From NCBI GenBank assembly GCA_013820875.1, contig JACDHS010000006.1, forward strand, positions 17,865-81,864: a stretch of DNA of 64,000 nt. The letters run 5' to 3'. The DNA is from Verrucomicrobiota bacterium (GTDB taxonomy: Bacteria > Verrucomicrobiota > Verrucomicrobiia > Limisphaerales > JACDHS01). The number at the start of each line of letters is the position of its first letter. Position 1 is the first letter of the stretch. A program made the translations under genes and the position numbers. Under the pieces are notes generated by a model, which did not search any database, was not told where the DNA came from, and saw nothing but the letters and a program-made list of their open reading frames with translations. Below are positions 3,957-17,766 of the stretch, in pieces.

Positions 3957-5300
3957 TCAAGTGGTTACGTCGCTCAATTGATGTTGTGTGAGATGCCGAT
4001 TCTGTAACTCACAATTGTTCAGCCGGTTCGATAACAACAACTGCTCTGATTTAATCTCCGTCAGTTGAATCGCTTTTTGAAGATGTTGAGCGGCTAACTC
4101 AAAGTTCTTCAAGCGGGTTTCAAATTCAGCCTTCACTGCATAAAATAAATAGTAAGCTTCCAACGACTGCTGATTCTGAATGGCGGCTACAGCCTCCATC
4201 CCGGCTTTCGGCCCGTGGACCTGCGCAACGGCAACGGCCCGGTTCAACGCGATCACCGGCGATGCGTCCAGACTCACTAATTGATCGTACAATGCCAAAA
4301 TCCGCGGCCAATCTGTGGATGCGTAATCCCCCGCTGTGCAGTGGCACCCCGCGATTCCCGCTTGAAGATGATACGCCGTCAGGTCTTCGCCGACTGCGGA
4401 GCGCGCCAGGTGATACATTCCCCGCGCGATCATTCCCTGGTTCCAACTGGAACGATCCTGTTCCTCCAACCGAAGAACGTTTCCCGCAATATCCGTCCGC
4501 GCGGAAAGTCGCGCGGCATTGAATAACATCAGGGCGAGCAACGCATGCGTGCGCGGCTGGTTCCCTTCCGGATGTTCGGCCAGCAATGTTCCCAACCGAA
4601 TTGCTTCAACGCAGAGTTCTTCGCGAATTAAACTCTCCCCGTTCGACGCCTTATAACCTTCGTTGAACAACAGGTAGAGCGTTTGCAGCACGCCATTCAG
4701 GCGATCCGAAAGTTCATTACCACAGGGAATCTCAAACGGAATTTTCAACTCGCGAATTCTCTGCCTGGCGCGCGTCAACCGCTTGGCAACAGCGGCTTCC
4801 GTCGTCAGGAACGCTTTCGCAATTTCCGCCGGACTGAATCCGCAAAGCGTTTTGAGCGCAAGCGCCGTTTGCGATTCAGACGGAATCAACGGATGACAAC
4901 ACGCAAACATCAGTCGCAGGCGGCCATCCTTGATTTCTGTTTCAAACGCAGGTGAATCCTCGACGTTGACCTCATTCGACCATTGCTCAATGAAGGCAAT
5001 GATCTGCGGTTGCTTCTCGTAAAAAACCTTTTCGCGCCGGAGCACATCCAACGCGAGGTTCTTCGCCGTCTGCGTGAGCCATGCGGCTGGATTCCTGGGA
5101 ATCCCGTAGTAAGGCCAGGTCTGCAATGCCCGCCCCAATGCTTCCTGCACCACATCTTCCGACAACTGCAAACGTTCGATCCCAAAGAGACCCGTCAACA
5201 CGGAAACAAGCTTCCCTGCCTCATGTCGAAAGAGGTGATCAGTCAGCCCTGAAATATCGCGGCCCGGATCTGACCCTGGATTATTTGCGTCCGAACTCAC
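3957..5300 (-). CDS. ECF-type RNA polymerase sigma factor with long C-terminal helical/TPR-like extension (ECF42-like)
   Basis: 447 aa. The N-terminal sigma-2/sigma-4 regions read FRHEAGKLVSVLTGLFG...NPAAWLTQTAKNLALDVLRR...GFSPAEIAKAFLTTEAAVAKRLTRARQRI. They are followed by about 250 aa of helical extension. Two DGPF genes lie immediately upstream. Confidence 0.8.
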   Translation of the reverse strand: MSSDANNPGSDPGRDISGLTDHLFRHEAGKLVSVLTGLFGIERLQLSEDVVQEALGRALQTWPYYGIPRNPAAWLTQTAKNLALDVLRREKVFYEKQPQIIAFIEQWSNEVNVEDSPAFETEIKDGRLRLMFACCHPLIPSESQTALALKTLCGFSPAEIAKAFLTTEAAVAKRLTRARQRIRELKIPFEIPCGNELSDRLNGVLQTLYLLFNEGYKASNGESLIREELCVEAIRLGTLLAEHPEGNQPRTHALLALMLFNAARLSARTDIAGNVLRLEEQDRSSWNQGMIARGMYHLARSAVGEDLTAYHLQAGIAGCHCTAGDYASTDWPRILALYDQLVSLDASPVIALNRAVAVAQVHGPKAGMEAVAAIQNQQSLEAYYLFYAVKAEFETRLKNFELAAQHLQKAIQLTEIKSEQLLLSNRLNNCELQNRHLTQHQLSDVTT

Positions 5301-5439
5301 TGATCACATCCACCTGGACCACTGAAAGCAACCCGGGCACGTTTGCTGAGTGTCAGTGTGCGTGCCCCTTCTGGTATTGGCCGAACTTGATTTTTCATTC
5401 TTTGTCTCTGCTTGAATTCTCGTCTTTTGGTAAATGCTT

Positions 5440-5865
5440 TTATGCGGTCACGCCCGCGGTCTCTCCCGAGCGCGTCGAATCTTCCAACGCACGTTCCCTC
5501 ACTCCGCAGATCTCTGCCACCGGCCGAACCTCGACCGCCGCCCCGTATTCGAGCCCGGGACATTGCTTTGCGATTTCGAGCGCTTCGTCCATTCCCGCGA
5601 CATGAAGATAAAAATAGCCGCCAATGGCCTCCTTGGATTCCGCAAAAGGGCCGTCGGCGACAGATTGACCTTTCTTCCCGGAAACAATCTTGCCCTCATT
5701 CATCAGCGGATGGCCGGACTTCGCCTTGCCCTCTTTCGTGAGTCCTTCGAACCAGGCCATCCAGTCGGAAACCACCTTTTGAAGTTGTTCCGGAGAGAGA
5801 CCTTTGTCCCAGTTGGTCCCGCGAAAAAGCAGCATGTAATCAGATTTCGGTGTGGGTGTGTTCAT
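5440..5865 (-). CDS. YciI-related / DGPF domain protein
   Basis: Trimmed to ATG 5865 (MNTPTPKSDYMLLFRG...). It contains DGPFAESKEAIGGYFYL, the DGPF signature. Confidence 0.8.
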   Translation of the reverse strand: MNTPTPKSDYMLLFRGTNWDKGLSPEQLQKVVSDWMAWFEGLTKEGKAKSGHPLMNEGKIVSGKKGQSVADGPFAESKEAIGGYFYLHVAGMDEALEIAKQCPGLEYGAAVEVRPVAEICGVRERALEDSTRSGETAGVTA

Positions 5866-5881
5866 AGTGTCATTTGTGCCA

Positions 5882-6280
5882 TTAAGCCGTTGCCAGTGCC
5901 AATCGTTCTTTTGCCCGTTTGAAGCACGGGCATTCATCCAGCACCTGCCGCACTTCGATGTTAACCCCGTACTCAAGGGTCGGACTGGATTTTGCGATGT
6001 TTGTCGCCTCTTCGATACTGTCCGCCGTGATCAGCAGATAACCACCGATCGCTTCCTTCGATTCCGCGAATGGTCCGTCGGAAACTTTCTGCCCGGAAAG
6101 GGTTCGCCCCTCGCGAGCGAGGGGTTGGCCTCCTTTTACTCGTCCTTGTTCTTGCAGCCCATCAAACCACGCCATGACTTTGTCCAGGCGTTGCTGCAGT
6201 TCTTCGGGGGAGATTCCCTGGTCCCAATCCGGTCCACTGAAAAGCAGTATGTATTCGGATGATGTCTTTGAATTGTTCAT
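5882..6280 (-). CDS. YciI-related / DGPF domain protein (paralog)
   Basis: 132 aa with SDGPFAESKEAIGGYLLI. It is clearly homologous to the adjacent gene. Confidence 0.85.
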   Translation of the reverse strand: MNNSKTSSEYILLFSGPDWDQGISPEELQQRLDKVMAWFDGLQEQGRVKGGQPLAREGRTLSGQKVSDGPFAESKEAIGGYLLITADSIEEATNIAKSSPTLEYGVNIEVRQVLDECPCFKRAKERLALATA

Positions 6281-7324: not shown

Positions 7325-8437
7325 TCACTCAGCAATCAACTTGCGTGATAACTTCTCCAGTTCTTTGGAAAAACGCGCGGGGTTGAAATCAGGGAGTGAT
7401 TGGGTCAGAGCGAAGAGTTGGTTTATTTCGGGGTCAAGTTTTTGATTGTAGCCGGAATGTCCAGCGAGTCGGTCAAGACCCAGCACGAGCCTTTCGGCGC
7501 GGCGAGCGTGGACGGCGACAGGAACCTCCTTGTTCTGAAATTCAGGGAAAGTTTCGGCCAATTGACGCAACTGTTTGCGGGCGTGATCCGCATTCCACCT
7601 GGCATCGGCAGCCTGGCGGGCGGCGTCATCGGCACGCTTCTGAACGCGGGTGTAATGGGTTCGTTCGCTTTCGGTATCGCCGCTCGGAACATCCATGCCA
7701 GTGGCACGGACGAGCCAGAGCAATCCCGCCCAGCGGTCGTGCAGTTTTTTATCGGCATTCTCTTCACGCGCCAGTTGCCAGCTCATTTCCCGGAGGGCCA
7801 CCAGTTGACCGATGTACCAGGCTTGCGCACCGGAATAGGATTCTTTTTCCCGCCAATGCTTCGGCTGCGACACGCTTTGGCCATCCAGTTCAAAAATCAA
7901 TTCGGGATGACCGGCTGCAGCCAGTTCGGGTTCGAGGGTTTGATGGCAGGCAACGCAGGTATTGGCGCGGACGTAGAGATTTTTGAGATCACGCATTCCG
8001 GAAGCGACGCGATCGAAATGATTGAAGTCAGGTCGAGTATGGGAAAGAAGCCACGGTTCGGCGGCGCCATGGCAACTCTCGCAAGAGACGCCCTGGGAAA
8101 TCTTGATTCCCTGCGCGAGCAACTTTTCGCTTACCGTTTGAAACGGTGCATGGCAGGTGGTGCATTGAGCGCTTTTGGTTGCGTCTTCAATTTTCAATAC
8201 TTCGGCCATTCGTTCTGAACGGGCGGAGGTGAGAGTGGCGTAGGAGCGGGAATGAAAATCGAGCTTTGACCAGATAACACATTGGTTCTTCTCCTCGCTG
8301 GCTCCGCCGTGGCAACTGGTCGAACTGCAGGAAGGCATCCCCGTGAAGCGGGGCGGTTGAATCGTTTCCGCGGCGAGCCACCCGCTGGTAACGGTAATCA
8401 AACTGAATAAGACGGCGGCGATTTTCAAAAGTCTCAT
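7325..8437 (-). CDS. Periplasmic multiheme cytochrome c (3 CxxCH + 1 Cx4CH) with helical C-terminal domain
   Basis: Signal peptide MRLLKIAAVLFSLITVTSGWLAAE. Heme motifs are CSSTSCH, CTTCH, CESCH and CVACH. It is divergent from the 8512-14099 operon. Confidence 0.8.
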   Translation of the reverse strand: MRLLKIAAVLFSLITVTSGWLAAETIQPPRFTGMPSCSSTSCHGGASEEKNQCVIWSKLDFHSRSYATLTSARSERMAEVLKIEDATKSAQCTTCHAPFQTVSEKLLAQGIKISQGVSCESCHGAAEPWLLSHTRPDFNHFDRVASGMRDLKNLYVRANTCVACHQTLEPELAAAGHPELIFELDGQSVSQPKHWREKESYSGAQAWYIGQLVALREMSWQLAREENADKKLHDRWAGLLWLVRATGMDVPSGDTESERTHYTRVQKRADDAARQAADARWNADHARKQLRQLAETFPEFQNKEVPVAVHARRAERLVLGLDRLAGHSGYNQKLDPEINQLFALTQSLPDFNPARFSKELEKLSRKLIAE

Positions 8438-8511
8438 GACCCGTTTGAGTAAACAAAGAAAGTTGTTCGTTTACTCTGTAATTGGCTTTTGTTAAACAAT
8501 TCCTGACTTAG

Positions 8512-9813
8512 ATGCAACCTTTGGTCAATCATCTGCAATCTTTCTCAACGTGGCCGCTGGGCTATACCGTTGGAATGGTGATCCTCACAGTCCTGCTGCT
8601 TCATGCCATGCTGCAATTGTATGGCTACAGCAGACGACTCGGTTTTGAGAAACAACAGCAACGCCTCGCGCGCCAGCAAATGCAGCTCTCCATCCAGGCC
8701 GCCATGCTCCGCTGCAAGGAGGCTGAAGCCGGGCAACTCGTCTGGAATGGCTTCCGCAAGTTCCGGGTCGCGAAAAAGGTTCCAGAATGTCAGGACGTCT
8801 TTTCCTTCTATCTCGCGCCACACGATGGCAAACCGATTCCCAGCTTCAAGCCGGGTCAATATCTGACGTTTCAATTGCACGTTCCGAACCAGGCCAAGCC
8901 GGTCATTCGCTGCTACTCGATCTCCGATGCGCCACGAGAAGATAATCAATTCCGTGTCACCATCAAAAAAGCATTGCCTCCACGCGATGCCAAAGAGGCG
9001 TTGCCGGGCATCGCATCCAGTTATTTCGCCGAAACTCTGCGGGAAGGAGACATCCTCGATGTGAAAGCTCCGTCCGGCGCGTTCTTCCTGGAACTGGGTA
9101 AATCCACTCCGGTCGTGCTGATCTCCGGTGGGGTGGGCATCACGCCAATGTTGAGCATGATGAATGCGCTTTTGAACATGGGTTCAAAACGTGAGATCTG
9201 GTTTTTCCATGGAGCCCGCAACAGCAAGGAGCACATCCTGAAAGAATACGTGGAGAAGATAGTGGCCCAGCATGACAACGTGCGTTTGGTGGTTTCCTAC
9301 AGTGCTCCGCTGCCGGGCGATGTGATGGACAAAGATTACCACCACCAGGGATATTTCAGCGTCTCCCTGCTCAAAGATCTCCTGCCATCGAACAATTTTG
9401 AGTACTTCATTTGCGGTCCGCCCAAGATGATGGAGGACGCCGCCTTCAAACTCGCAGAATGGGGCGTGCCGAAAAACCGGATTAATTATGAAGCATTCGG
9501 TCCTCCCGCAAAAAAGAAAGTGGACGCTCCAACCGGTGCACTCCTCACGACTGGCGCAGGATTGAAAGTGACTTTTGGCCGTTCTGGAAAAACCACCGTG
9601 TGGGATCCGACGTGCGAATCCATCCTGGATCTGGCGGACAAGGCAGGCGTGGATATCAGTTCAGGTTGTCGCTCCGGCAGTTGCGGCACCTGCCTGGTTG
9701 CAATCAAGACTGGCAAGGTAGCTTACTCCGGGACGCATGATGCCGTTGGCGAAGAAGGTTCCTGCCTGACCTGCGTTTGCAAGCCGGAAACAGACGTCGT
9801 CCTGGACGTGTAA
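8512..9813 (+). CDS. Membrane-anchored FNR-family flavoprotein reductase with C-terminal plant-type [2Fe-2S] ferredoxin domain
   Basis: N-terminal TM segment GYTVGMVILTVLLLHAMLQLYGY. FAD motif RCYSIS, NAD(P) motif GGVGITPM, and a Fer2 cysteine set CRSGSCGTC...C. Confidence 0.8.
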   Translation: MQPLVNHLQSFSTWPLGYTVGMVILTVLLLHAMLQLYGYSRRLGFEKQQQRLARQQMQLSIQAAMLRCKEAEAGQLVWNGFRKFRVAKKVPECQDVFSFYLAPHDGKPIPSFKPGQYLTFQLHVPNQAKPVIRCYSISDAPREDNQFRVTIKKALPPRDAKEALPGIASSYFAETLREGDILDVKAPSGAFFLELGKSTPVVLISGGVGITPMLSMMNALLNMGSKREIWFFHGARNSKEHILKEYVEKIVAQHDNVRLVVSYSAPLPGDVMDKDYHHQGYFSVSLLKDLLPSNNFEYFICGPPKMMEDAAFKLAEWGVPKNRINYEAFGPPAKKKVDAPTGALLTTGAGLKVTFGRSGKTTVWDPTCESILDLADKAGVDISSGCRSGSCGTCLVAIKTGKVAYSGTHDAVGEEGSCLTCVCKPETDVVLDV

Positions 9814-9816
9814 AGA

Positions 9817-11535
9817 ATGAGCACCACTTCATCGAAACCACAACGTTGGGACGATGCCACTTCATTTGGAGGCGGCCTCTCCGATGCGGAAGTGGATCGA
9901 TTAATGACCCTGTCCCCTTTTCGCGAGATGGACCAGGAGACATTCCCGAAGCGTTTGCCATTACGCGGAATCCTTCAGAACGACACACGCATTCGCAAAT
10001 TCAGCAAAGGAGAAATGGTCGTTCGCCAGGGGGACTACGGCACGTCAGCGTTCCTGATCATGTCCGGCGAAGTGAAAGTGGTGCTGAAGCCGGAACTGCC
10101 CCCGCGCATCCTCGGTCGCAAAGAAGCAGAGCGTCCGAATATCTTTCGTATTTTTAGCCAGTTCTGGAATTCCAAACATCCGGAAACCCGCAAGCCATTC
10201 GAATTAAAGGCTGGAGATGAAGTATCCGCGCGACAGGCGGATGACGGTGAACTTAAAGTTTTCCTCCAGGACATACCGCGCATTCTCGACCAGCATCAGA
10301 CCGCCACAATTGGTTCCGGAGAATTCTTTGGCGAAATTTCGGCTCTCGGACGCATCCCCCGCACCGCCACCACCTTCTGCGAAAAGGAGGCGGAACTGCT
10401 CGAGATCCGTTGGCAGGGCCTGCGCGATCTCCTGAAGTACGACAAGAACCTGAAAATGCGGATCGACCAGATTTACCGTGAACGCGCTCTCGCCAGTCAT
10501 CTGTTGAAAATGCCGATGTTCCGGAACCTCACGCCGGAGAATCTGCAGAAGGTGATTGATGAAGCGGAATTCCGAACCTACGGCGAATACGATTGGTCCG
10601 GCGATTACAAAAAGCTGGTGAAAGCAGGCGCGGCTGAGGGCGCTCCCAAAGAACCTGTGATCGTACAGGAGGGAGATTATTTGAATGGGCTCGTGCTCAT
10701 TCGCGCCGGTTTTGCGCGGTTAAGCCAGAAGTTTGGACGCGGTCTGCGCACGTTGAATTACCTGGGAGTAGGCCAGAGTTATGGTTTCGACGAGATCGCA
10801 CATAACTGGCGGAAGAAAGAGGAGTCGCTGCCGTTTCAATACACCCTGACGGCCATCGGTTACACGCACGTCATCGTGATTCCAACGAATCTCATTGAAG
10901 AACTGGTGCTCCCTACCCTGCCCCCCAAGGCATGGCCGGCGTTGATTCAGAAAAAGGAGGAAGCAGCACCGACTGTCGAAAAGAATAAAGCCGCTGAAAC
11001 TCGCATTGGGCCGGACATGATGGAGTTCGTCGCGGAACATCGTTTCTTCAACGGCACGGCCACAATGCTGATTGACCTGACGCTATGCACGCGTTGCGAC
11101 GATTGCGTGCGGGCCTGCGCCTCCACGCATAACAATAATCCGCGTTTCCTGCGCAATGGCCCGACCAACGGCAACGTGATGGTGGCCAATGCCTGCATGC
11201 ATTGCGTGGATCCGGTTTGCATGATCGGCTGCCCGACGGGCGCCATTCATCGAAATGCGTTCGAAGGCGAAGTCGTTATCAACCAATCGACGTGCATCGG
11301 TTGCCAATCCTGCGCATCCAACTGTCCATACGATGCCATCCGAATGGTGGAAGCGCGCGATACCAAAGGGCGTCTCGTTCTGGACAAAGAGATGAAAGGC
11401 ATTCTGAAAGCCACGAAGTGTGATTTGTGTGTCGATCAATATGGAGGGCCGGCTTGCGAGAGAGCTTGTCCCCATGATGCTTTGGTTCGCCTCAACATGA
11501 ACGATCTCGATAGCTTCGCCAAATGGCTTAAATAG
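9817..11535 (+). CDS. Fusion protein: two cyclic-nucleotide-binding (CAP_ED) domains plus a four-cluster [4Fe-4S] ferredoxin module (DmsB/NrfC-like)
   Basis: cNMP signatures are FFGEISALGRIPRTATTF and a second domain VQEGDYLNGLVLIRAGFARL. Cysteine groups are CTRCDDCVRAC, CMHCVDPVCMIGCP, CIGCQSCASNCP and CDLCVDQYGGPACERACP. No Tat or Sec signal is apparent. Confidence 0.8.
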   Translation: MSTTSSKPQRWDDATSFGGGLSDAEVDRLMTLSPFREMDQETFPKRLPLRGILQNDTRIRKFSKGEMVVRQGDYGTSAFLIMSGEVKVVLKPELPPRILGRKEAERPNIFRIFSQFWNSKHPETRKPFELKAGDEVSARQADDGELKVFLQDIPRILDQHQTATIGSGEFFGEISALGRIPRTATTFCEKEAELLEIRWQGLRDLLKYDKNLKMRIDQIYRERALASHLLKMPMFRNLTPENLQKVIDEAEFRTYGEYDWSGDYKKLVKAGAAEGAPKEPVIVQEGDYLNGLVLIRAGFARLSQKFGRGLRTLNYLGVGQSYGFDEIAHNWRKKEESLPFQYTLTAIGYTHVIVIPTNLIEELVLPTLPPKAWPALIQKKEEAAPTVEKNKAAETRIGPDMMEFVAEHRFFNGTATMLIDLTLCTRCDDCVRACASTHNNNPRFLRNGPTNGNVMVANACMHCVDPVCMIGCPTGAIHRNAFEGEVVINQSTCIGCQSCASNCPYDAIRMVEARDTKGRLVLDKEMKGILKATKCDLCVDQYGGPACERACPHDALVRLNMNDLDSFAKWLK

Positions 11536-12357
11536 ATGATTTCGCGAAAGAATAGATGGGTCGCTAAACTCTTTTTGTTGATCCTCCTGTGTGTGGTCGT
11601 CACGGTGGTGGCTCAACAATACAGTCATTTACCGAGGCATGTCTTCATCACCGGCTGGCTGCTCCTGGGATTGATGCTGTTGCTGACGCTTTACAATGGC
11701 CGCAAGAAAATCCCTTTTCTGCCGCTGGCAAACTCCAAAGATTGGCTGCAATTCCACATCTATGCGGGGTGGTTCACGCTGTTGCTCTTTTTGCTTCACA
11801 TCCGTTTTCGATTTCCGACTGGTTGGTTTGAAGGGACTTTGGCAACCCTCTATGCGGTTGTGATGGTGAGCGGGATCGTTGGTCTTTTCATCTCAAGATC
11901 CTTTCCGAAACGCCTGACCAGCCGGGGTGGCGAGGTTCTGTTCGAGACCATACCAATCGTTCGTCGCAACCTGCGAAAACGCGCGGAGGAACTGACGCTC
12001 AAATCCATCCCGGACGTGCAGGCTTCGACGGTCGCCGATTTTTATACCAATGAATTGGCGGGATTCTTTGCCGGCCCCAAAAACTATTGGAAACATTTGT
12101 TCGAAATCCGAACTCCACTCAACCATCTGCTAAAAAAAGTGGATGACCTGAAAAGGTTTTTGAATGAGAAAGAGCGCGGTGTCATGAGCGAATACTCCGA
12201 TCTCGTTCGGCAGAAGGATGGATTGGATTATCATCATACCCTGCAACTGACGCTGAAACTTTGGTTGTTTGTTCACATCCCGCTAACCTACAGCCTGCTG
12301 ATTTTTTCCCTGGTGCATGTCATTTTGGTCTTCGCGTTTTCGGGAGGAGCCCGATGA
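11536..12357 (+). CDS. Integral membrane protein, putative di-heme b-type cytochrome (two TM helices each with His-X13-His)
   Basis: ATG directly follows the upstream TAG. It has about 5 TM segments. TM3 reads QFHIYAGWFTLLLFLLHI and the last TM reads FVHIPLTYSLLIFSLVHV; each has two His 14 positions apart. Confidence 0.55.
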   Translation: MISRKNRWVAKLFLLILLCVVVTVVAQQYSHLPRHVFITGWLLLGLMLLLTLYNGRKKIPFLPLANSKDWLQFHIYAGWFTLLLFLLHIRFRFPTGWFEGTLATLYAVVMVSGIVGLFISRSFPKRLTSRGGEVLFETIPIVRRNLRKRAEELTLKSIPDVQASTVADFYTNELAGFFAGPKNYWKHLFEIRTPLNHLLKKVDDLKRFLNEKERGVMSEYSDLVRQKDGLDYHHTLQLTLKLWLFVHIPLTYSLLIFSLVHVILVFAFSGGAR

Positions 12358-14099
12358 AAGATCAATTACCCGCGCCGGACTTTAATTCCCAACGCTACGA
12401 ACGTCCCAATCAGAAGTGGGTTTGTGGATGGTTGTGCGACGGCACCCCTTGCAAGAATGGTCCGGATGGAAAAGGCCATTGCGGCGCCACGGCTGATTGT
12501 CACCCAGTTTTGAAGCCTGGAAACGAAGGCGAAAAAGCTGCTTTTGTCTGCACACGCTCCAAGGAACTCGGCGGCCCCTGCGAAGAAGGCCCGCGCGCAG
12601 ACGGCTGTTGCAGTCATCCACCCAAACTTTGTCAGCCTCAGCTCAGCCTGCGTCATAAGCGCGGCCTCGTCACGAAAAGCGTCATCGTTCTCACCCTCGG
12701 TTTGCTCCTGGTGATTTTTTATGGCGGGTATCGCTGGCGGTTTATTTCTCCCGGCGAACTTTCCTTTAAGCATCAGAGCGCGGCCTTTGCCCAGATGGCG
12801 CACGACCTTCATGGCGCAAACCAACAATGCGCTGCGTGCCATGCGGCAGCAAAATCCGGCCCGTCCGATTGGATCGCCACCGCCAGCGCCGCCGATCCCG
12901 GACCACATGAACTTCAAAAACTTTTACTCACACCGCACCCGGAAACGACCCGGCTCGACCTGACTTGTCAAAAATGTCATCCGCACCACACGTTTCACGA
13001 ACCGAACGTCGCCTGGGAATATTCCTGTTCCTCCTGTCACCAGGAACATAAGGGTGGCGGCCCGATGAAAGCGGTTAATGTACAACATTGCGTCGGTTGC
13101 CACGGCAACGCAGAAGTGATGCAGGCAGCCGCGAAAAAGGGAGAGTTAATCCCGGCGCACCATTTCGATTTTCAATTTGATCAGACGCGCGCGTCGTTCC
13201 GCGCGCCACGACCCGCGAAAGGTTACACACAGTTGATTACCGAATTTTCAAAGGATCATCCCGAGTTCCTCGTGCATCGGGAAAACTTAAAGGATCCGAA
13301 CACCCTTCGATTCAGTCATGCCACTCACGTCGGGGACAATCCAAATATGCCCCTGCTCGACGGCAGGAAACTGGATTGCGCCTCCTGCCATAAACCTGGT
13401 CCCGGCGGCGTTTACTATCAGCGCGTGACCTTCGAAGCGAATTGCAAGGCCTGTCACTCCCTCCAGTTCGACCGCGAAAACCCGGGTCTGACCATTCCGC
13501 ACGGGGAACCAGCATTTGCCCAGGCGTTCCTGCGCAGCCTCCCCCAGCAATATGCAAGCTACGCGAGCAAATCAAAAGGGATCACCGGGAAAACGGAACT
13601 GGATCGATTCGTTCGCGAACAACTCAAGGAGTTGCGGGACCAGTTTGGTTCCGGTGAAGAATTGGAACAAAAAGTTTTCTTCAGTGACGAACGCACTGCG
13701 CCGGCCACCAGCATCGGCGGCCTCAGTTCAAAGGGGCGCTCCATGTTCGCCGGTTGCGCTTATTGTCACGAAGTAAAACCAGGTAAAGATTTGCCGATTG
13801 TGACTGCTCCCGTCATGCCGGAGCGTTGGCTGGATCGTGGGCGCTTCGATCATTCCAAACATGCCAACCTGAGCTGCGTCACCTGCCATGAACAGGCAAT
13901 CTTCAGCAAACATGCCTCGGACATTCTACTCCCTACGCAACACAGTTGCGCCGCTTGTCACCGGCCACAGGGAGCTGCCCGGAATGATTGTTTGGAATGT
14001 CATTCCTATCATCATCGCCCGGAGAAGTTCGATCTCCCCATTCGCACAGAACGAAATACCAACTTCCTGAAAACGGCGACTTCTTCCGCGGGGAAATAA
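12354..14099 (+). CDS. Membrane-anchored decaheme cytochrome c with Cys-rich N-terminal region
   Basis: Trimmed to ATG 12354, which overlaps the upstream TGA (ATGA). Ten CxxCH motifs: CAACH, CQKCH, CSSCH, CVGCH, CASCH, CKACH, CAYCH, CVTCH, CAACH, CLECH. One TM (VIVLTLGLLLVIFYGGY) follows a roughly 100-aa segment containing 10 Cys. Confidence 0.8.
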   Translation: MKDQLPAPDFNSQRYERPNQKWVCGWLCDGTPCKNGPDGKGHCGATADCHPVLKPGNEGEKAAFVCTRSKELGGPCEEGPRADGCCSHPPKLCQPQLSLRHKRGLVTKSVIVLTLGLLLVIFYGGYRWRFISPGELSFKHQSAAFAQMAHDLHGANQQCAACHAAAKSGPSDWIATASAADPGPHELQKLLLTPHPETTRLDLTCQKCHPHHTFHEPNVAWEYSCSSCHQEHKGGGPMKAVNVQHCVGCHGNAEVMQAAAKKGELIPAHHFDFQFDQTRASFRAPRPAKGYTQLITEFSKDHPEFLVHRENLKDPNTLRFSHATHVGDNPNMPLLDGRKLDCASCHKPGPGGVYYQRVTFEANCKACHSLQFDRENPGLTIPHGEPAFAQAFLRSLPQQYASYASKSKGITGKTELDRFVREQLKELRDQFGSGEELEQKVFFSDERTAPATSIGGLSSKGRSMFAGCAYCHEVKPGKDLPIVTAPVMPERWLDRGRFDHSKHANLSCVTCHEQAIFSKHASDILLPTQHSCAACHRPQGAARNDCLECHSYHHRPEKFDLPIRTERNTNFLKTATSSAGK

Positions 14100-14415: not shown

Positions 14416-16089
14416 ATGGGAAGCAGTATGTCTGAGGTAACACATTCTAAGCTAACGGCTCACCGCCCTTGGATGTTTCAATCGCGATCCCGACTTTTTG
14501 TGACTCTTTTCCTGGTTGTCGCGATCCCTACAGCCATTTTGACGGCTTTGACGGCTTTTTTTGTTTATGACGAACTGACTGACCAGACGGTGAGACATAA
14601 CACCGTCACGGCGCGGCTCGTCGCCAAACACATTGATGAAGAATTTTACGGCTTGCGCCGCTATGTCGAGAGCTTTGCAATACGTGAAAGAATCAGAAAT
14701 TCGATCGAAGCCAATGATGCAGATGCGATACAGGAACAACTAGAGGATCTGGTTGAGAACAACAGCAAACTTTCACGAGCGGTAATCACCGACACCCAGG
14801 GTGTTCTGCGTTTCGATTATCCCAGAGACCCGGAAACACTCGGAAAAGATTTTTCTCACCGCAACTGGTTCAAAGGAGCTTCACAAGCGGATACACCTTA
14901 CATTTCAGAAGCTTACCGGCGGACTGCACTGGACCAGGCAGTTGTCGTGATGATCGCAACTAAAATCAGAGATCCTCAAGGCGCCGTCGGCTATTTAGGC
15001 GCCCACCATGCGATTGAAGATCTCATGGATTGGCTGGACTCAGTGCAATCATCCGATTCGGAGCGAATAGCCATTTTTGATCAGTATGGAAATCAGATGA
15101 TGAGAATGGATAGCCCACAAATCGAAAACATCAGCGAGCACCCGGACATTCAGAAAGCTTTAAAGCAGCCCGAGGGCTGGTTAAAAATCAACGGCATCGA
15201 TGAATTTGATCGCGCTCTCTTGAGCCATGTTCCTATTCCGAATCTTGGTTGGACCGTGATGGCATACCAGGACTACACAGTGGTTTTTGCACCCGTGCAA
15301 CGTCTGCTTCGCACCATTCTGATTTTTTTCCTAATCGCACTGGCTGCGATGGGATTGCTCGGCTGGCTTTGGTATCGTGTTCTCTTCACCTACGCGGAGG
15401 ATTTGCGACGGAGCAACAGGGAATTGGAAAACCTTTGCTATAGCATTGCCCACGATTTACGGGCGCCGTTAAGAGCGATGCAGGGATTCACCAGTCTGAT
15501 TGCCGAGGACTACGCAGAGAAACTTGGCGATGAAGGAATGGCGTGCGCGCGGCGCGTAGGAACTGCCGCCCAACGAATGGATTGGCTTATTCGCGACCTG
15601 TTGGAATATGGGAGCGTCACACACAGAAGCCTGGAGTTCGAACGAGTCGATTTAAGCCAAAGCATGCAAAATGCAATGGAAGCAATGGTCGCTCGCATTC
15701 AGAAAAAGCAGGCAGAAATCAGGGTCAACGACCCTCTTGGAGTTGTGACTGCCGATAAGCGTATGGTGCAGCACCTCCTGGAGCATCTATTGAGTAATGC
15801 TCTGAAGTATGTCGCTCGCAATATCACGCCGAAAATTGAGATATGGAGCGAAGACAAGCCACAGCATGTGCGCCTATGGATGAGGGACAATGGTATCGGG
15901 ATTCCATGTGAACAATTTGAAAGAATTTTTGGCATTTTCCAAAGACTGCACCCCACCGAAAGCTATTCTGGAACAGGAATTGGCCTGGCGATTGTTAAAA
16001 AAGCAGCGGAACGCATGGGCGGCAGCGTTGGCCTGGAATCTGAACCCGATAAAGGGAGCATCTTTTGGATCGAATTACCAAAGAAGTAA
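14416..16089 (+). CDS. Sensor histidine kinase (periplasmic Cache-like sensor, HisKA, HATPase_c)
   Basis: Two TM segments flank a roughly 250-aa extracytoplasmic domain. H-box SIAHDLRAPLRAM. ATPase motifs DNGIGIP and GTGIGLAIVKK. No response regulator is adjacent. Confidence 0.85.
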   Translation: MGSSMSEVTHSKLTAHRPWMFQSRSRLFVTLFLVVAIPTAILTALTAFFVYDELTDQTVRHNTVTARLVAKHIDEEFYGLRRYVESFAIRERIRNSIEANDADAIQEQLEDLVENNSKLSRAVITDTQGVLRFDYPRDPETLGKDFSHRNWFKGASQADTPYISEAYRRTALDQAVVVMIATKIRDPQGAVGYLGAHHAIEDLMDWLDSVQSSDSERIAIFDQYGNQMMRMDSPQIENISEHPDIQKALKQPEGWLKINGIDEFDRALLSHVPIPNLGWTVMAYQDYTVVFAPVQRLLRTILIFFLIALAAMGLLGWLWYRVLFTYAEDLRRSNRELENLCYSIAHDLRAPLRAMQGFTSLIAEDYAEKLGDEGMACARRVGTAAQRMDWLIRDLLEYGSVTHRSLEFERVDLSQSMQNAMEAMVARIQKKQAEIRVNDPLGVVTADKRMVQHLLEHLLSNALKYVARNITPKIEIWSEDKPQHVRLWMRDNGIGIPCEQFERIFGIFQRLHPTESYSGTGIGLAIVKKAAERMGGSVGLESEPDKGSIFWIELPKK

Positions 16090-16101: not shown

Positions 16102-17649
16102 CTATAACTCCGGGTTGCGAGGGAACTTCGCGTAAGGGAGACGTGCTCCACGATAATCCATCCGGTCAGCGCGAATCTCCTGTGGCGGCCTGAACCCAAC
16201 GGTTCCAGCCGAACCGATCAGGTCATCCTGGTCAATACCGTCACCCGATATTCCAATTGCTCCAATCAACACCCCGTTGCGATACAGTGGAAAGCCGCCG
16301 GGGAAAATGGTGATGCCATTTGGCAGGTTCGGATTGGGCGGAAAAGAATCCGCGGGTAAGCCGACAAATGCTCCATTCAACGAATTGAATCCGACGAAAC
16401 CTGAAAACCGTTCCTGCAAACCCAGAAAGGGTCCCGGCGTTGTGTCAACAATCCCCGGCGGATACATACTCTGCGCCATAAACCCGACGGTTCGCGTGGA
16501 GAAGGCGCGGTTGTTGTTCGAGAAGAAGAGGGCCGTCCGCGCTTTCTGCACCGAAACGTCCCAACTGAAAATTGTGGCATCGGGAGTGCGGAAGGTTCCA
16601 AGAATCGGGGGCCGTCCTCCCGGTTCATTCGGATTTCCAATTACCGAAATAAAGACCTGCGCTGGTTGCCCAACCGGCAAACGAATCCCTCCGCGAGTAA
16701 TGCTCGCGCGGTACGCCGCACGGGCAATGATCAACCGAACCTCGCGAGCACTCAAACGGGGTTGGCCATCAATCAAGCCCGGAAGCGGATCACCCCGAAT
16801 CGGCGCGCGAACTTCACCAAGCACCCCGCCAACCAACATCTTCGGATAGCTGACATTCGGACTGCTGCGAATGGGATAAGGGGCAACCTCTCCGCCGAGG
16901 TCCGCTACGGAGGAAGGATCCACCACTTGTGTCGAACTCGAAATATAGGCCACGCGAATTCCATCAATAAAAACATTTGAACCGGCGATGGTTGGATGCG
17001 GCGAGTAGCCCACCTGCCCTGCCAGCGCGATGTCTTCGTCCACATCATAGACTTGTGTGACCTGAATGTTTTCCGAACCGTCCCCTGTCACGCCAATGCC
17101 GCCAATCGCGATTCCGTTCTTATAGAGAGGCACGCCTCCTGGCGAGCCTGCCAGTGACGTGCCGGGGATCGGCGCCCCGTTGGCACCGCTGGGCCCCGAG
17201 TCCGTGCCGGGTCGCACGGTGAATGTGCCGGGATCTTTAAAACGATTGACTCTGCTGAAAGGCAGATTGGAAAAATTAACACCGACGAGCGGACCAGGCG
17301 GCCGATTGGCGATGCCCGGAGGAAAATGCTGCTGCACGATGAAACCCGCCGTGCGACTGGTCAATGCCTGGTCGTTACTGCTGAGAAATGCGGCAGTGCC
17401 AGCCTTTGCAACGGCGGCCGCAATTTTGTTGGCCCGGTTCACCGGATTCGTCGGAATCGCACCGACCGCCCATACTCCGAGCACATAGCCCTCGCGATCG
17501 ACCACGGCGATAAAACTGTTCGGGGAAATTGCCTTCGCGCGAGCCGCGGCCTGGTTGATGACAATCTGCACATCCTCGGCCTGCATCTGGGCAAAGGCCG
17601 GCAACTGACAGAGTAGCAAAGAGAGGAACAGCAAACAGAATCTCATCAT
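16102..17649 (-). CDS. Secreted protein with two tandem GlcG/DUF336 (HbpS-like) domains
   Basis: Trimmed to ATG 17649 (MMRFCLLFLSLLLCQLPAFAQ). There are two copies of the pattern ...AKAGTAAFLSS/ARTALFFSN...GG(V/F)PLY(K/R)NG..IG(G/A)IG(V/I)(T/S)GDG. Confidence 0.7.
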   Translation of the reverse strand: MMRFCLLFLSLLLCQLPAFAQMQAEDVQIVINQAAARAKAISPNSFIAVVDREGYVLGVWAVGAIPTNPVNRANKIAAAVAKAGTAAFLSSNDQALTSRTAGFIVQQHFPPGIANRPPGPLVGVNFSNLPFSRVNRFKDPGTFTVRPGTDSGPSGANGAPIPGTSLAGSPGGVPLYKNGIAIGGIGVTGDGSENIQVTQVYDVDEDIALAGQVGYSPHPTIAGSNVFIDGIRVAYISSSTQVVDPSSVADLGGEVAPYPIRSSPNVSYPKMLVGGVLGEVRAPIRGDPLPGLIDGQPRLSAREVRLIIARAAYRASITRGGIRLPVGQPAQVFISVIGNPNEPGGRPPILGTFRTPDATIFSWDVSVQKARTALFFSNNNRAFSTRTVGFMAQSMYPPGIVDTTPGPFLGLQERFSGFVGFNSLNGAFVGLPADSFPPNPNLPNGITIFPGGFPLYRNGVLIGAIGISGDGIDQDDLIGSAGTVGFRPPQEIRADRMDYRGARLPYAKFPRNPEL

Positions 17650-17703
17650 CCTGCCTTCTTTGTAAAAAATTCCGCGTCTGAACGCGAGGGCAAAACAAAT
17701 CCG

Positions 17704-17741
17704 ATCAAACAAAAAAGGCACTCTGAAAACAGAGTGCCTTT
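17704..17741 (-). terminator. Intrinsic terminator downstream of the HU gene
   Basis: aaaggcactctg (17714-17725) pairs perfectly with cagagtgccttt (17730-17741) around a 4-nt loop. On the minus strand it is followed by TTTTTTGTTTG. Confidence 0.8.
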
Positions 17742-17766
17742 GATAACCAATCAACAACAAGGAAGA

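Follow-up and report, generated by a model that had tools for sequence, protein, structure and literature searches.

A 64,000-nucleotide stretch of DNA from a soil Verrucomicrobiota bacterium (NCBI GenBank assembly GCA_013820875.1, contig JACDHS010000006.1, positions 17,865 to 81,864 of the forward strand; this whole stretch is called the window below) contains, at positions 7,325 to 14,099, five linked genes, designated A to E, that very likely encode a conserved transmembrane electron-transfer complex. Judged from their sequences, the best reading of these genes, which we hold with reasonable confidence, is a cyclic nucleotide monophosphate (cNMP)-gated exporter that would carry electrons from NAD(P)H to multihaem cytochromes and bypass quinone. 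An earlier interpretation made from the letters of this DNA (the sequence-only reading) had proposed five open reading frames (ORFs), in four of which (B to E) the cofactors would form a continuous wire, and the ORF listing contains all five where that interpretation had put them:

7325..8437, minus strand: A, secreted tetrahaem cytochrome c (signal peptide, Cytochrome_C554, haem motifs)
8438..8511, no strand: divergent intergenic region between A and B, 74 bp, presumed to hold the promoters of both (read directly)
8512..9813, plus strand: B, putative membrane-tethered NAD(P)H:[2Fe-2S] reductase (transmembrane segment, FAD_binding_6, NAD_binding_1, Fer2)
9817..11535, plus strand: C, cytoplasmic protein with two cNMP-binding-like domains and a four-cluster [4Fe-4S] ferredoxin domain (PF00027, Fer4_11)
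10327..10371, plus strand: phosphate-binding cassette in cNMP domain 1 of C, F171-T185, FGEISALGRIPRTAT
11536..12357, plus strand: D, five-helix membrane protein of an unnamed family, putative di-haem cytochrome b
12354..14099, plus strand: E, decahaem cytochrome c with one transmembrane segment (10 CxxCH)

The junctions between these genes were read directly in the window. The TAA of gene B occupies 9811-9813, and the ATG of C follows at 9817; the TAG stop of C at 11533-11535 is immediately adjoined by the ATG of D at 11536; and at 12354-12357 D and E share the four letters ATGA, 5-11 nt downstream of a GGAGG-like site. The translational coupling described in the sequence-only reading, as well as the 74-bp spacer between A and B, thus lies where it was placed. 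A scan of 8438-8511 for the sigma-70 consensus, which is uninformative for the host phylum, gave no match.

A genome scan with the D-family alignment, which used Verrucomicrobiota-specific peptides, returned 80 loci, essentially all from Verrucomicrobiota of the Limisphaerales/Pedosphaerales type, other phyla being reached only through a search for C-D fusions and contig look-ups. Genes A (divergent), B, C, D, and E stand in the same order in nearly all of the 80 loci with enough flank, at 42-84% identity, and they are the only near-universal families among the clustered ORFs of the loci, the next being a neighbouring gene, F (32 loci), described below. The gaps between B and C are mostly 0-24 nt, and the ATGA overlap recurs at the C-D junction (54 of 79 loci) and at the D-E junction (53 of 78), i.e., in about 68% of cases. 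One D-family representative, P0251, is itself a C-D fusion; a search with it identified many such fusions of 816-884 aa in several lineages, together with stand-alone C homologues in Alpha- and Gammaproteobacteria, with hosts that include Tistlia consotensis, Halofilum ochraceum, Azospirillum, Rhodospirillum, and Oceanospirillum metagenome-assembled genomes (MAGs). Five proteobacterial loci (L084-L087 and L089) carry A to E, within a cluster of seven co-directional genes for a ~700-aa five-haem cytochrome, a ~450-aa protein, B, A, C, D (or a C-D fusion), and E. At L088 the gene calls split E, and a 707-aa ORF with 10 haem motifs is present.

The sequence-only reading had staked its module on the families occurring together in other genomes, and the syntenic A-E set of nearly all 80 verrucomicrobial and five proteobacterial loci, along with the C-D fusions, bears this out; the larger gene set found in other genomes had escaped it. 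Because synteny, haem count, cofactor ligands, and ATGA overlaps are conserved in many genomes, the module is more than a product of chance. It could be argued that these are neighbours with independent functions and that the wire is an artefact of reading, as none of the domain types is rare and the genomes concerned are rich in multihaem genes. With an order conserved over about 85 loci in two phyla, 4-nt overlaps in most of them, the existence of C-D fusions, and an invariant haem count and ligand set, this explanation is extremely improbable. As a side observation, eight of the records (L021, L028, L035, L039, L041, L042, L058, and L059) are titled Klebsiella, Bifidobacterium, or Akkermansia muciniphila; these titles look like mis-assigned taxonomy, because the proteins share 55-63% identity with those of the window and the synteny is identical.

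We then considered what each protein would contribute to such a wire. Protein B is predicted to combine an FNR-like reductase with a plant-type [2Fe-2S] domain (PDR/PaaE/Hcr-like architecture), as the sequence-only reading had supposed. Its N-terminal transmembrane (TM) segment at residues 14-39 (8551-8628) is followed by an FAD/NAD(P) module at residues 77-334 (8740-9513) and the [2Fe-2S] domain at residues 357-432 (9580-9807); the Pfam scores are 75 bits for NAD_binding_1, 45 bits for Fer2, and 35 bits for FAD_binding_6, all above cut-off, and none of the cluster cysteines (C386, C391, C394, and C418/C421) varies among 70 homologues. Among solved structures, the reductase half of flavohaemoglobin (Hmp; E = 1.8e-49) is the closest and NqrF the next; these two and the dioxygenase reductases, also near relatives, all run from NAD(P)H outward. 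No NCBIfam equivalog matched B at its cut-off, the best being the Hmp reductase half with 262 bits against 432.

Protein C, which had been described as a four-cluster ferredoxin fused to a cNMP-binding part, has both in Pfam searches. Its cNMP-binding-like domains span residues ~40-365 (9934-10911), where PF00027 scores 76.1 bits (cut-off 27.5) over three stretches that make up two domains, the first split by an insert. The ferredoxin domain at residues 416-567 (11062-11517) scores 40.4 bits with Fer4_11 (cut-off 26.2), also matches Fer4_7, and carries 16 cysteines in four motifs, i.e., C424/427/430/434, C460/463/468/472, C493/496/499/503, and C535/538/547/551, all invariant in 77 homologues. 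This part belongs to the four-cluster ferredoxins of the Fer4_11, HycB/DmsB/NrfC type: the closest solved chains are the cytoplasmic HycB3 (E = 1.4e-15) and HycB, and the NCBIfam matches include DmsB, HybA, FdnH, and NrfC. A sequence scan of C revealed no signal, Tat motif, or TM segment.

Protein D is the membrane-embedded part of the proposed path. It has five TM helices, a 115-residue cytoplasmic helical insert (residues 121-235) between TM4 and TM5, and two helices that each bear a pair of histidines separated by 13 residues, H74 (11755-11757) with H88 (11797-11799) and H247 (12274-12276) with H261 (12316-12318), the two His-X13-His helices of the sequence-only reading. That reading stood or fell with the conservation of these histidines, and all four are invariant in 33 cluster representatives of 32-52% identity and in 89 locus-derived homologues. 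An exhaustive profile search puts the size of the D family at 2,415 representatives after clustering at 50% identity. The window protein is 100% identical to the NCBI 'hypothetical protein H0X66_02245'; in the NCBI record for the source MAG, D starts 13 codons later (260 aa, P0001; 11536-11574 left out). The ATG at 11536 looks like the correct start: the reading frame that begins there adjoins the stop codon of C, and the alignment with homologues covers all 273 aa.

Neither Pfam nor NCBIfam gave a match to D at cut-off, and a relaxed Pfam search placed its insert in no family. The AlphaFold2 model of D is all-helical with a predicted local distance difference test (pLDDT) score of 75; Foldseek comparison of this model with the PDB gave nothing below E = 1, and the family profile matched only coiled-coil noise among PDB sequences. 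When 33 diverse members were scanned singly against Pfam, sub-threshold matches were obtained to DUF4405 (PF14358; 17 of 33, best E 1.8e-4), Ni_hydr_CYTB (PF01292; 17 of 33, best E 5e-3), and Ferric_reduct (PF01794; 6 of 33, best E 0.016), with the window D scoring 16.0 bits against a gathering threshold of 26.7 for the first and 10.1 against 30.1 for the second and having no match at E <= 0.01 for the third. All three are di-haem b membrane families. For DUF4405, haem b binding has been shown experimentally (PMC11334425). The DUF4405 and Ni_hydr_CYTB scores are consistent with remote relatedness and do not amount to membership, and D would be a remote, unnamed branch of the broad di-haem b group outside any named family.

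Protein E, proposed earlier as a 10-haem cytochrome with a single TM segment, has that segment at residues 103-128 (12660-12737), followed by a periplasmic 10-haem domain at residues 159-553 (12828-14012). Exactly 10 CxxCH motifs are found in 78 of 79 homologues, whose lengths range from 515 to about 830 aa; all ten motifs and ten further histidines are conserved, a pattern that fits ten bis-His haems. Pfam gave weak c3/c7-type matches only, and the AlphaFold2 model, made without haems, is poor (pLDDT 59). Ahead of the TM segment, at residues ~15-95 (12396-12638), lies a cytoplasmic cysteine-rich domain that the sequence-only reading had overlooked. It begins with the conserved motif Y-x-R-P-N-x-x-W-[VI]-C-G, its eight cysteines (C24, C33, C43, C49, C66, C76, C86, and C93) are invariant across Verrucomicrobiota and Proteobacteria, and a relaxed Pfam search assigned it to no family. 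On the cytoplasmic face of the complex, it could bind an Fe-S cluster or Zn.

Protein A has a signal-peptide-like TM segment at residues 3-24 and a c554-like fold at residues ~37-195 (PF13435, Cytochrome_C554, 43 bits against a cut-off of 20.8), followed by a ~175-residue helical domain to which a relaxed Pfam search assigned no family. The earlier description of A as a secreted, divergently transcribed tetrahaem cytochrome holds, with a correction to its motifs: three are CxxCH, and the first is CX4CH (C37-X4-C42-H43), kept in 98% of 52 homologues. The CX4CH motif, the three CxxCH motifs, and four more histidines are conserved in this set. Gene A is divergent from B in Verrucomicrobiota and sits between B and C, inside the operon, in Proteobacteria.

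The topology of the membrane part was deduced from loop charges, gene fusions, and the site of haem attachment. By the positive-inside rule, D has its N-terminus inside, five TM helices, the long insert in the cytoplasm, and its C-terminus outside. The C-D fusions imply that the ferredoxin domain of C adjoins the cytoplasmic face of D, fixing the N-terminus of D inside, and with the same rule they have both histidine-bearing helices running from inside to outside. Parallel helices of this kind would give one inner and one outer bis-His site, H74/H247 on the cytoplasmic side and H88/H261 on the periplasmic side, an arrangement known from cytochrome b and from NOX/FRD proteins. Attachment of haem c takes place in the periplasm, and E must for this reason have its N-terminus inside and its ten haems outside. 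The sequence-only reading would have failed with the decahaem domain in the cytoplasm; the positive-inside rule, the fusion of cytoplasmic C to D, and periplasmic haem c attachment together place it outside.

What the sequences show is the gene set with its motifs, their conservation, the fusions, and the coupled junctions; the mechanism that follows is what we infer from them, and with it the occupancy of the cofactor sites, the topology, the direction in which electrons run, the gating, and any role in physiology. In this mechanism, B, C, D, and E would form one inner-membrane complex that takes electrons from cytoplasmic NAD(P)H to the periplasm with no quinone pool in between. Electrons would enter from NAD(P)H through the FAD and then the [2Fe-2S] cluster of the TM-tethered B, cross the four [4Fe-4S] clusters of cytoplasmic C, pass to the cytoplasm-side haem b of D (H74, H247) and on to its periplasm-side haem b (H88, H261), and then run along the ten bis-His c haems of E, from which the soluble tetrahaem A and, after it, other partners would receive them, while domain 1 of C probably gates or tunes the flow on cAMP or cGMP. 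On the evidence of these sequences we moderately favour the view that NAD(P)H-derived electrons run outward and bypass quinone. Export of this kind, from the negative to the positive side, would dissipate the membrane potential, making a non-respiratory role more likely; candidate roles are redox balancing, reduction of extracellular or periplasmic Fe(III) or humics, iron acquisition, and chemistry of reactive oxygen species.

A route through the quinone pool would give D a different part, that of a quinone-reactive cytochrome b of the FdnI, NarI, or HybB type. In that case B-C-D would be an NAD(P)H:quinone oxidoreductase, or else D-E would resemble CbcL, CymA, or ImcH in taking electrons from quinol to cytochrome c. 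The four-cluster family of C (DmsB, HybA, FdnH, NrfC) usually partners quinone-reactive anchors, D matches weakly to Ni_hydr_CYTB, a quinone-reactive cytochrome b family, and the known inner-membrane entry points to multihaem conduits (CymA, CbcL, ImcH) use quinol. However, the NAD(P)H module and the decahaem output are translationally coupled to D across phyla, which would be needless if the pool mediated between them; the nearest relatives of C, a cytoplasmic protein, are the HycB proteins, which are not linked to quinone; and no quinone-site motif was identified in D. We consider a quinone-linked path unlikely.

The sequence-only reading had allowed for the reverse direction too, in which periplasmic or extracellular donors (Fe(II), reduced humics, or a partner cell) would feed electrons through A, E, and D to C and B for the reduction of NAD(P)+. 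FNR-family enzymes are reversible in principle, and the Mto and Pio multihaem conduits do run inward in iron oxidisers. Set against this, flow from the positive to the negative side would work against the membrane potential, and a donor with a potential far below that of Fe(II) or humics would be needed to reduce NAD(P)+ (about -320 mV). The module has no ion-translocating subunit that could cover the cost, and the nearest relatives of B (Hmp, NqrF, and the dioxygenase reductases) run from NAD(P)H outward. Inward flow is thermodynamically unlikely with regard to both membrane potential and donor potential, and we rate it as very improbable.

The gating step of the proposed exporter rests on domain 1 of C. 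Its cassette, FGEISALGRIPRTAT, conforms to FGE-x-[AS]-AL-x-R-x-PR-[TS]-A and is kept in Verrucomicrobiota and Proteobacteria, with the G-E and R-[TS]-A positions conserved in both phyla; by its PF00027 score and this cassette, domain 1 is predicted to bind cNMP. The second domain is degenerate and without the cassette residues. In 19 Limisphaerales loci (L032, L037, L053, L056, L057, L060, L064, L069-L074, L076, L077, L079, L081, and others), a FecR-like gene and a CHASE2 class-III nucleotide cyclase gene lie directly downstream of E, 2.5-5.5 kb downstream of D. Both the FecR-domain gene and the CHASE2 cyclase gene are absent from the window, where a dCache kinase gene holds the slot. The adjacency, though circumstantial, suggests that the CHASE2 cyclase is dedicated to making the cyclic nucleotide that C would sense. 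The conserved cassette and the cyclase genes in these 19 loci lend support to the regulation that the sequence-only reading had attributed to its conduit.

The same features could belong to a redox- or cNMP-responsive sensing or stress device that reports or repairs the periplasmic redox state, for instance by giving an electron now and then to enzymes of the periplasm that carry out repair or remove peroxide, as Fre-MsrQ supplies MsrP. This alternative overlaps with the exporter, as the wire would be the same and its purpose alone would differ. It draws on the cNMP domains of the module, on the varied adjoining sensor genes (the dCache kinase here, the CHASE2 cyclase and FecR-like protein elsewhere), on secreted HbpS-like proteins as frequent neighbours, HbpS being a redox-stress sensor partner in Streptomyces, and on aerobic hosts, with an iron superoxide dismutase (Fe-SOD) gene near the module in Tistlia. 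Yet 21 redox centres (FAD, [2Fe-2S], four [4Fe-4S], two haem b, ten haem c, and four more on A) would be excessive for a sensor, no output domain (helix-turn-helix, kinase, or cyclase) is found within B-E, and in other genomes the module is linked to large cytochromes of extracellular type and to probable outer-membrane barrels. A device of this sort seems to us quite unlikely.

Two neighbouring genes in the window follow E:

14416..16089, plus strand: K, dCache sensor histidine kinase, neighbour only (Pfam dCache_1, HisKA, HATPase_c)
16102..17760, minus strand: F, secreted protein with two HbpS/GlcG-like domains (PF03928)

The kinase noted at 14416 in the sequence-only reading is present; it is not a conserved neighbour, with a homologue near the module in only 1 of 82 loci, and for this reason we rejected it as a regulator of the module. 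Protein F scores 63.7 bits with PF03928 over 2 stretches and has a signal-peptide-like segment at ORF residues 38-59; the longest ORF starts with TTG, but an internal Met-Met near 17652 opens the signal peptide and is probably the true start. In Verrucomicrobiota, and there only, about 32 loci have an F homologue no more than 10 kb from D, in many cases as the first gene after E; the proteobacterial loci lack F. On the other side of the module, positions 3957-6280 of the window (minus strand) carry an ECF-type (extracytoplasmic function) sigma factor gene with a DUF6596 C-terminal domain and then two YCII-domain genes. These are unrelated housekeeping or regulatory genes, and their adjacency to the module is not conserved.

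Candidate downstream partners are encoded beside the module in other genomes. Halofilum ochraceum and some 22 of the verrucomicrobial loci encode a secreted decahaem/LVIVD beta-propeller protein of ~1,270-1,330 aa, with 46-49% identity between the phyla, and in Verrucomicrobiota it often pairs with a ~867-aa protein that has an outer-membrane-protein-like C-terminal beta-signal and no Pfam match; the two may be the terminal or outer part of the system. The proteobacterial loci have a ~700-aa five-haem cytochrome, which is c554/MtrC-like, and a ~420-480-aa Gly-rich protein with a signal peptide, a C-terminal beta-signal (...QVRF, ...VTQF, or ...QVLF), and no Pfam match. From their sequences these look like a porin-cytochrome pair, with the Gly-rich protein the probable outer-membrane barrel. 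The regions concerned are as follows:

L001 14252-20825: region of the decahaem/LVIVD protein
L005 12284-16099: region of the decahaem/LVIVD protein
L084 13138-16947, minus strand: region of the decahaem/LVIVD protein
L084 1939-5568: five-haem cytochrome and Gly-rich protein
L085 1728-5509: five-haem cytochrome and Gly-rich protein
L086 2083-5575: five-haem cytochrome and Gly-rich protein
L087 4088-7608: five-haem cytochrome and Gly-rich protein
L089 4116-7533: five-haem cytochrome and Gly-rich protein

Several observations weigh against the cNMP-gated, quinone-bypassing exporter. The putative outer-membrane or terminal components of the other genomes are absent from this window, and the physiological acceptor is hard to place in hosts that are mostly aerobic heterotrophs. 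The proposed path does not account for the cytoplasmic 8-Cys domain of E. Protein D scores above the threshold of no di-haem b family, neither its model nor its family profile found a counterpart in the PDB, and it may hold a quinone site. Finally, one locus (L083 8001-12820) has a C-D fusion and a 10-haem E, with no B or A within 8 kb, implying that NAD(P)H may not be the donor in every lineage; in some of them the genes of the donor module may lie elsewhere, or that module may be exchangeable.

To our knowledge, all characterised Gram-negative routes to periplasmic or extracellular multihaem cytochromes start at the quinol pool. NAD(P)H wired through Fe-S clusters and b haems to a decahaem cytochrome c would, if the exporter is real, be a different and non-energy-conserving entry point. 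It might account for the way in which aerobic heterotrophs dump redox equivalents, reduce Fe(III) or humics outside the cell, or produce extracellular superoxide. Only tentatively do we go further and propose that the module represents an unrecognised class of inner-membrane complex, widespread in Verrucomicrobiota, Alpha-, and Gammaproteobacteria, with a new di-haem b family at its core: an NAD(P)H:multihaem-cytochrome oxidoreductase that would be gated by cyclic nucleotides, export electrons directly to an envelope-spanning cytochrome conduit, and bypass quinones. Such an enzyme would be a prokaryotic multi-subunit counterpart of the NOX and ferric reductases, and a possible source of bacterial extracellular Fe(III) reduction or superoxide. 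Alternatively, it could be the missing inner-membrane step of verrucomicrobial extracellular electron transfer, a step left undefined in work on verrucomicrobial porin-cytochrome systems (PMC5615132). The analysis further defines an unnamed membrane family with a four-His signature (the 2,415 clusters above), an unassigned 8-Cys domain, and, in C, a rare respiratory-type Fe-S subunit fused to cNMP sensors. Because the module is present in the cultured Halofilum ochraceum and Tistlia consotensis, the hypothesis is directly testable.

Among known systems, NOX5, Fre/FRO, SpNOX, and Fre-MsrQ-MsrP likewise pass electrons from an FNR-family NAD(P)H/FAD module to two stacked transmembrane b haems, and the NOX and ferric reductases share with D the two His pairs about 13 apart on two parallel helices and a quinone-free exit. 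The module would differ from them in having as donor a separate, TM-tethered protein (B) with an extra [2Fe-2S] cluster, in interposing a four-cluster cNMP ferredoxin, and in its output, a 10-haem cytochrome c and not O2, Fe(III), or MsrP directly. Protein D itself, with five TM helices and a 115-residue insert, stays below the PF01794 profile threshold while showing the two His pairs on parallel helices, with haem binding predicted. Tmc and Hmc of Desulfovibrio follow the same plan, i.e., a periplasmic multihaem cytochrome c, a membrane cytochrome b, and a cytoplasmic Fe-S protein, but with non-homologous subunits: TmcB and HmcF are HdrD-like CCG proteins and TmcC and HmcE are NarI-like, whereas Pfam found no CCG or NarI-type domain in the locus. 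They have no NAD(P)H module and no cNMP domain and are thought to carry electrons inward to sulfate reduction. Identity with them was rejected, with scores of 30.8 bits against 114 for TmcA, 19 against 400 for HmcA, and 40.8 against 420 for HmcB.

Compared to HycB of formate hydrogenlyase and hydrogen-dependent CO2 reductase (HDCR), as well as DmsB, NrfC, HybA, and FdnH, C has the same four Cys motifs at residues 416-567; unlike these, it is fused to two cNMP-binding-like domains, has no Tat signal, and partners the unrelated 5-TM, His-rich D and not an NrfD-, DmsC-, or FdnI-type anchor or a hydrogenase. Like B, NqrF has an N-terminal anchor with [2Fe-2S], FAD, and NADH domains, and it is where electrons enter its membrane complex, the part proposed here for B; the domains of the two are permuted, B having [2Fe-2S] at its C-terminus. 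Identity with Na+-NQR was rejected, as B scores 120.7 bits against the 295 cut-off of TIGR01941 and no other nqr genes are adjacent.

CymA, CbcL, ImcH, CbcBA, Rnf-MmcA of Methanosarcina, and Ndh2-EetAB-PplA of Gram-positives are likewise membrane modules through which electrons from metabolism reach carriers in the periplasm or outside the cell; haems b and c occur together in CbcL and CbcBA too, and Rnf-MmcA also starts at a cytoplasmic low-potential donor. In contrast to the proposed exporter, these entry points draw on quinol, or on ferredoxin via the ion-pumping Rnf, and not on NAD(P)H through an Fe-S chain, and they have no cNMP domains and no D-type protein. An Mtr-type porin-cytochrome conduit was rejected as well, E scoring 22.9 bits against 30 for the MtrC/MtrF domain II/IV model; the window holds no gene for a porin or a second large cytochrome, possible outer-membrane partners being found only in other genomes. 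The Uet cluster of Tenderiales and PCC3 of iron oxidisers were compared and are different systems.

The small polytopic DUF4405/MsrQ-like/PepSY-like cytochromes associated with flavinylation have, as D does, four central histidines as their most conserved residues (PMC11334425), but D has 5 and not 6 TM helices and a large cytoplasmic insert, and it partners Fe-S and multihaem proteins in place of ApbE-flavinylated ones. The sequence-only reading had not recognised its combination of parts as a described complex, and the searches agree with it: no curated family matched D or the set at cut-off, nothing was found in the PDB by sequence or fold, and the full text of open-access papers yielded no description of this gene set. 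Altogether, these comparisons suggest that the principle, haem-based transmembrane electron transfer, is a known one, and that the architecture of the module and the membrane-protein family of D would be new.

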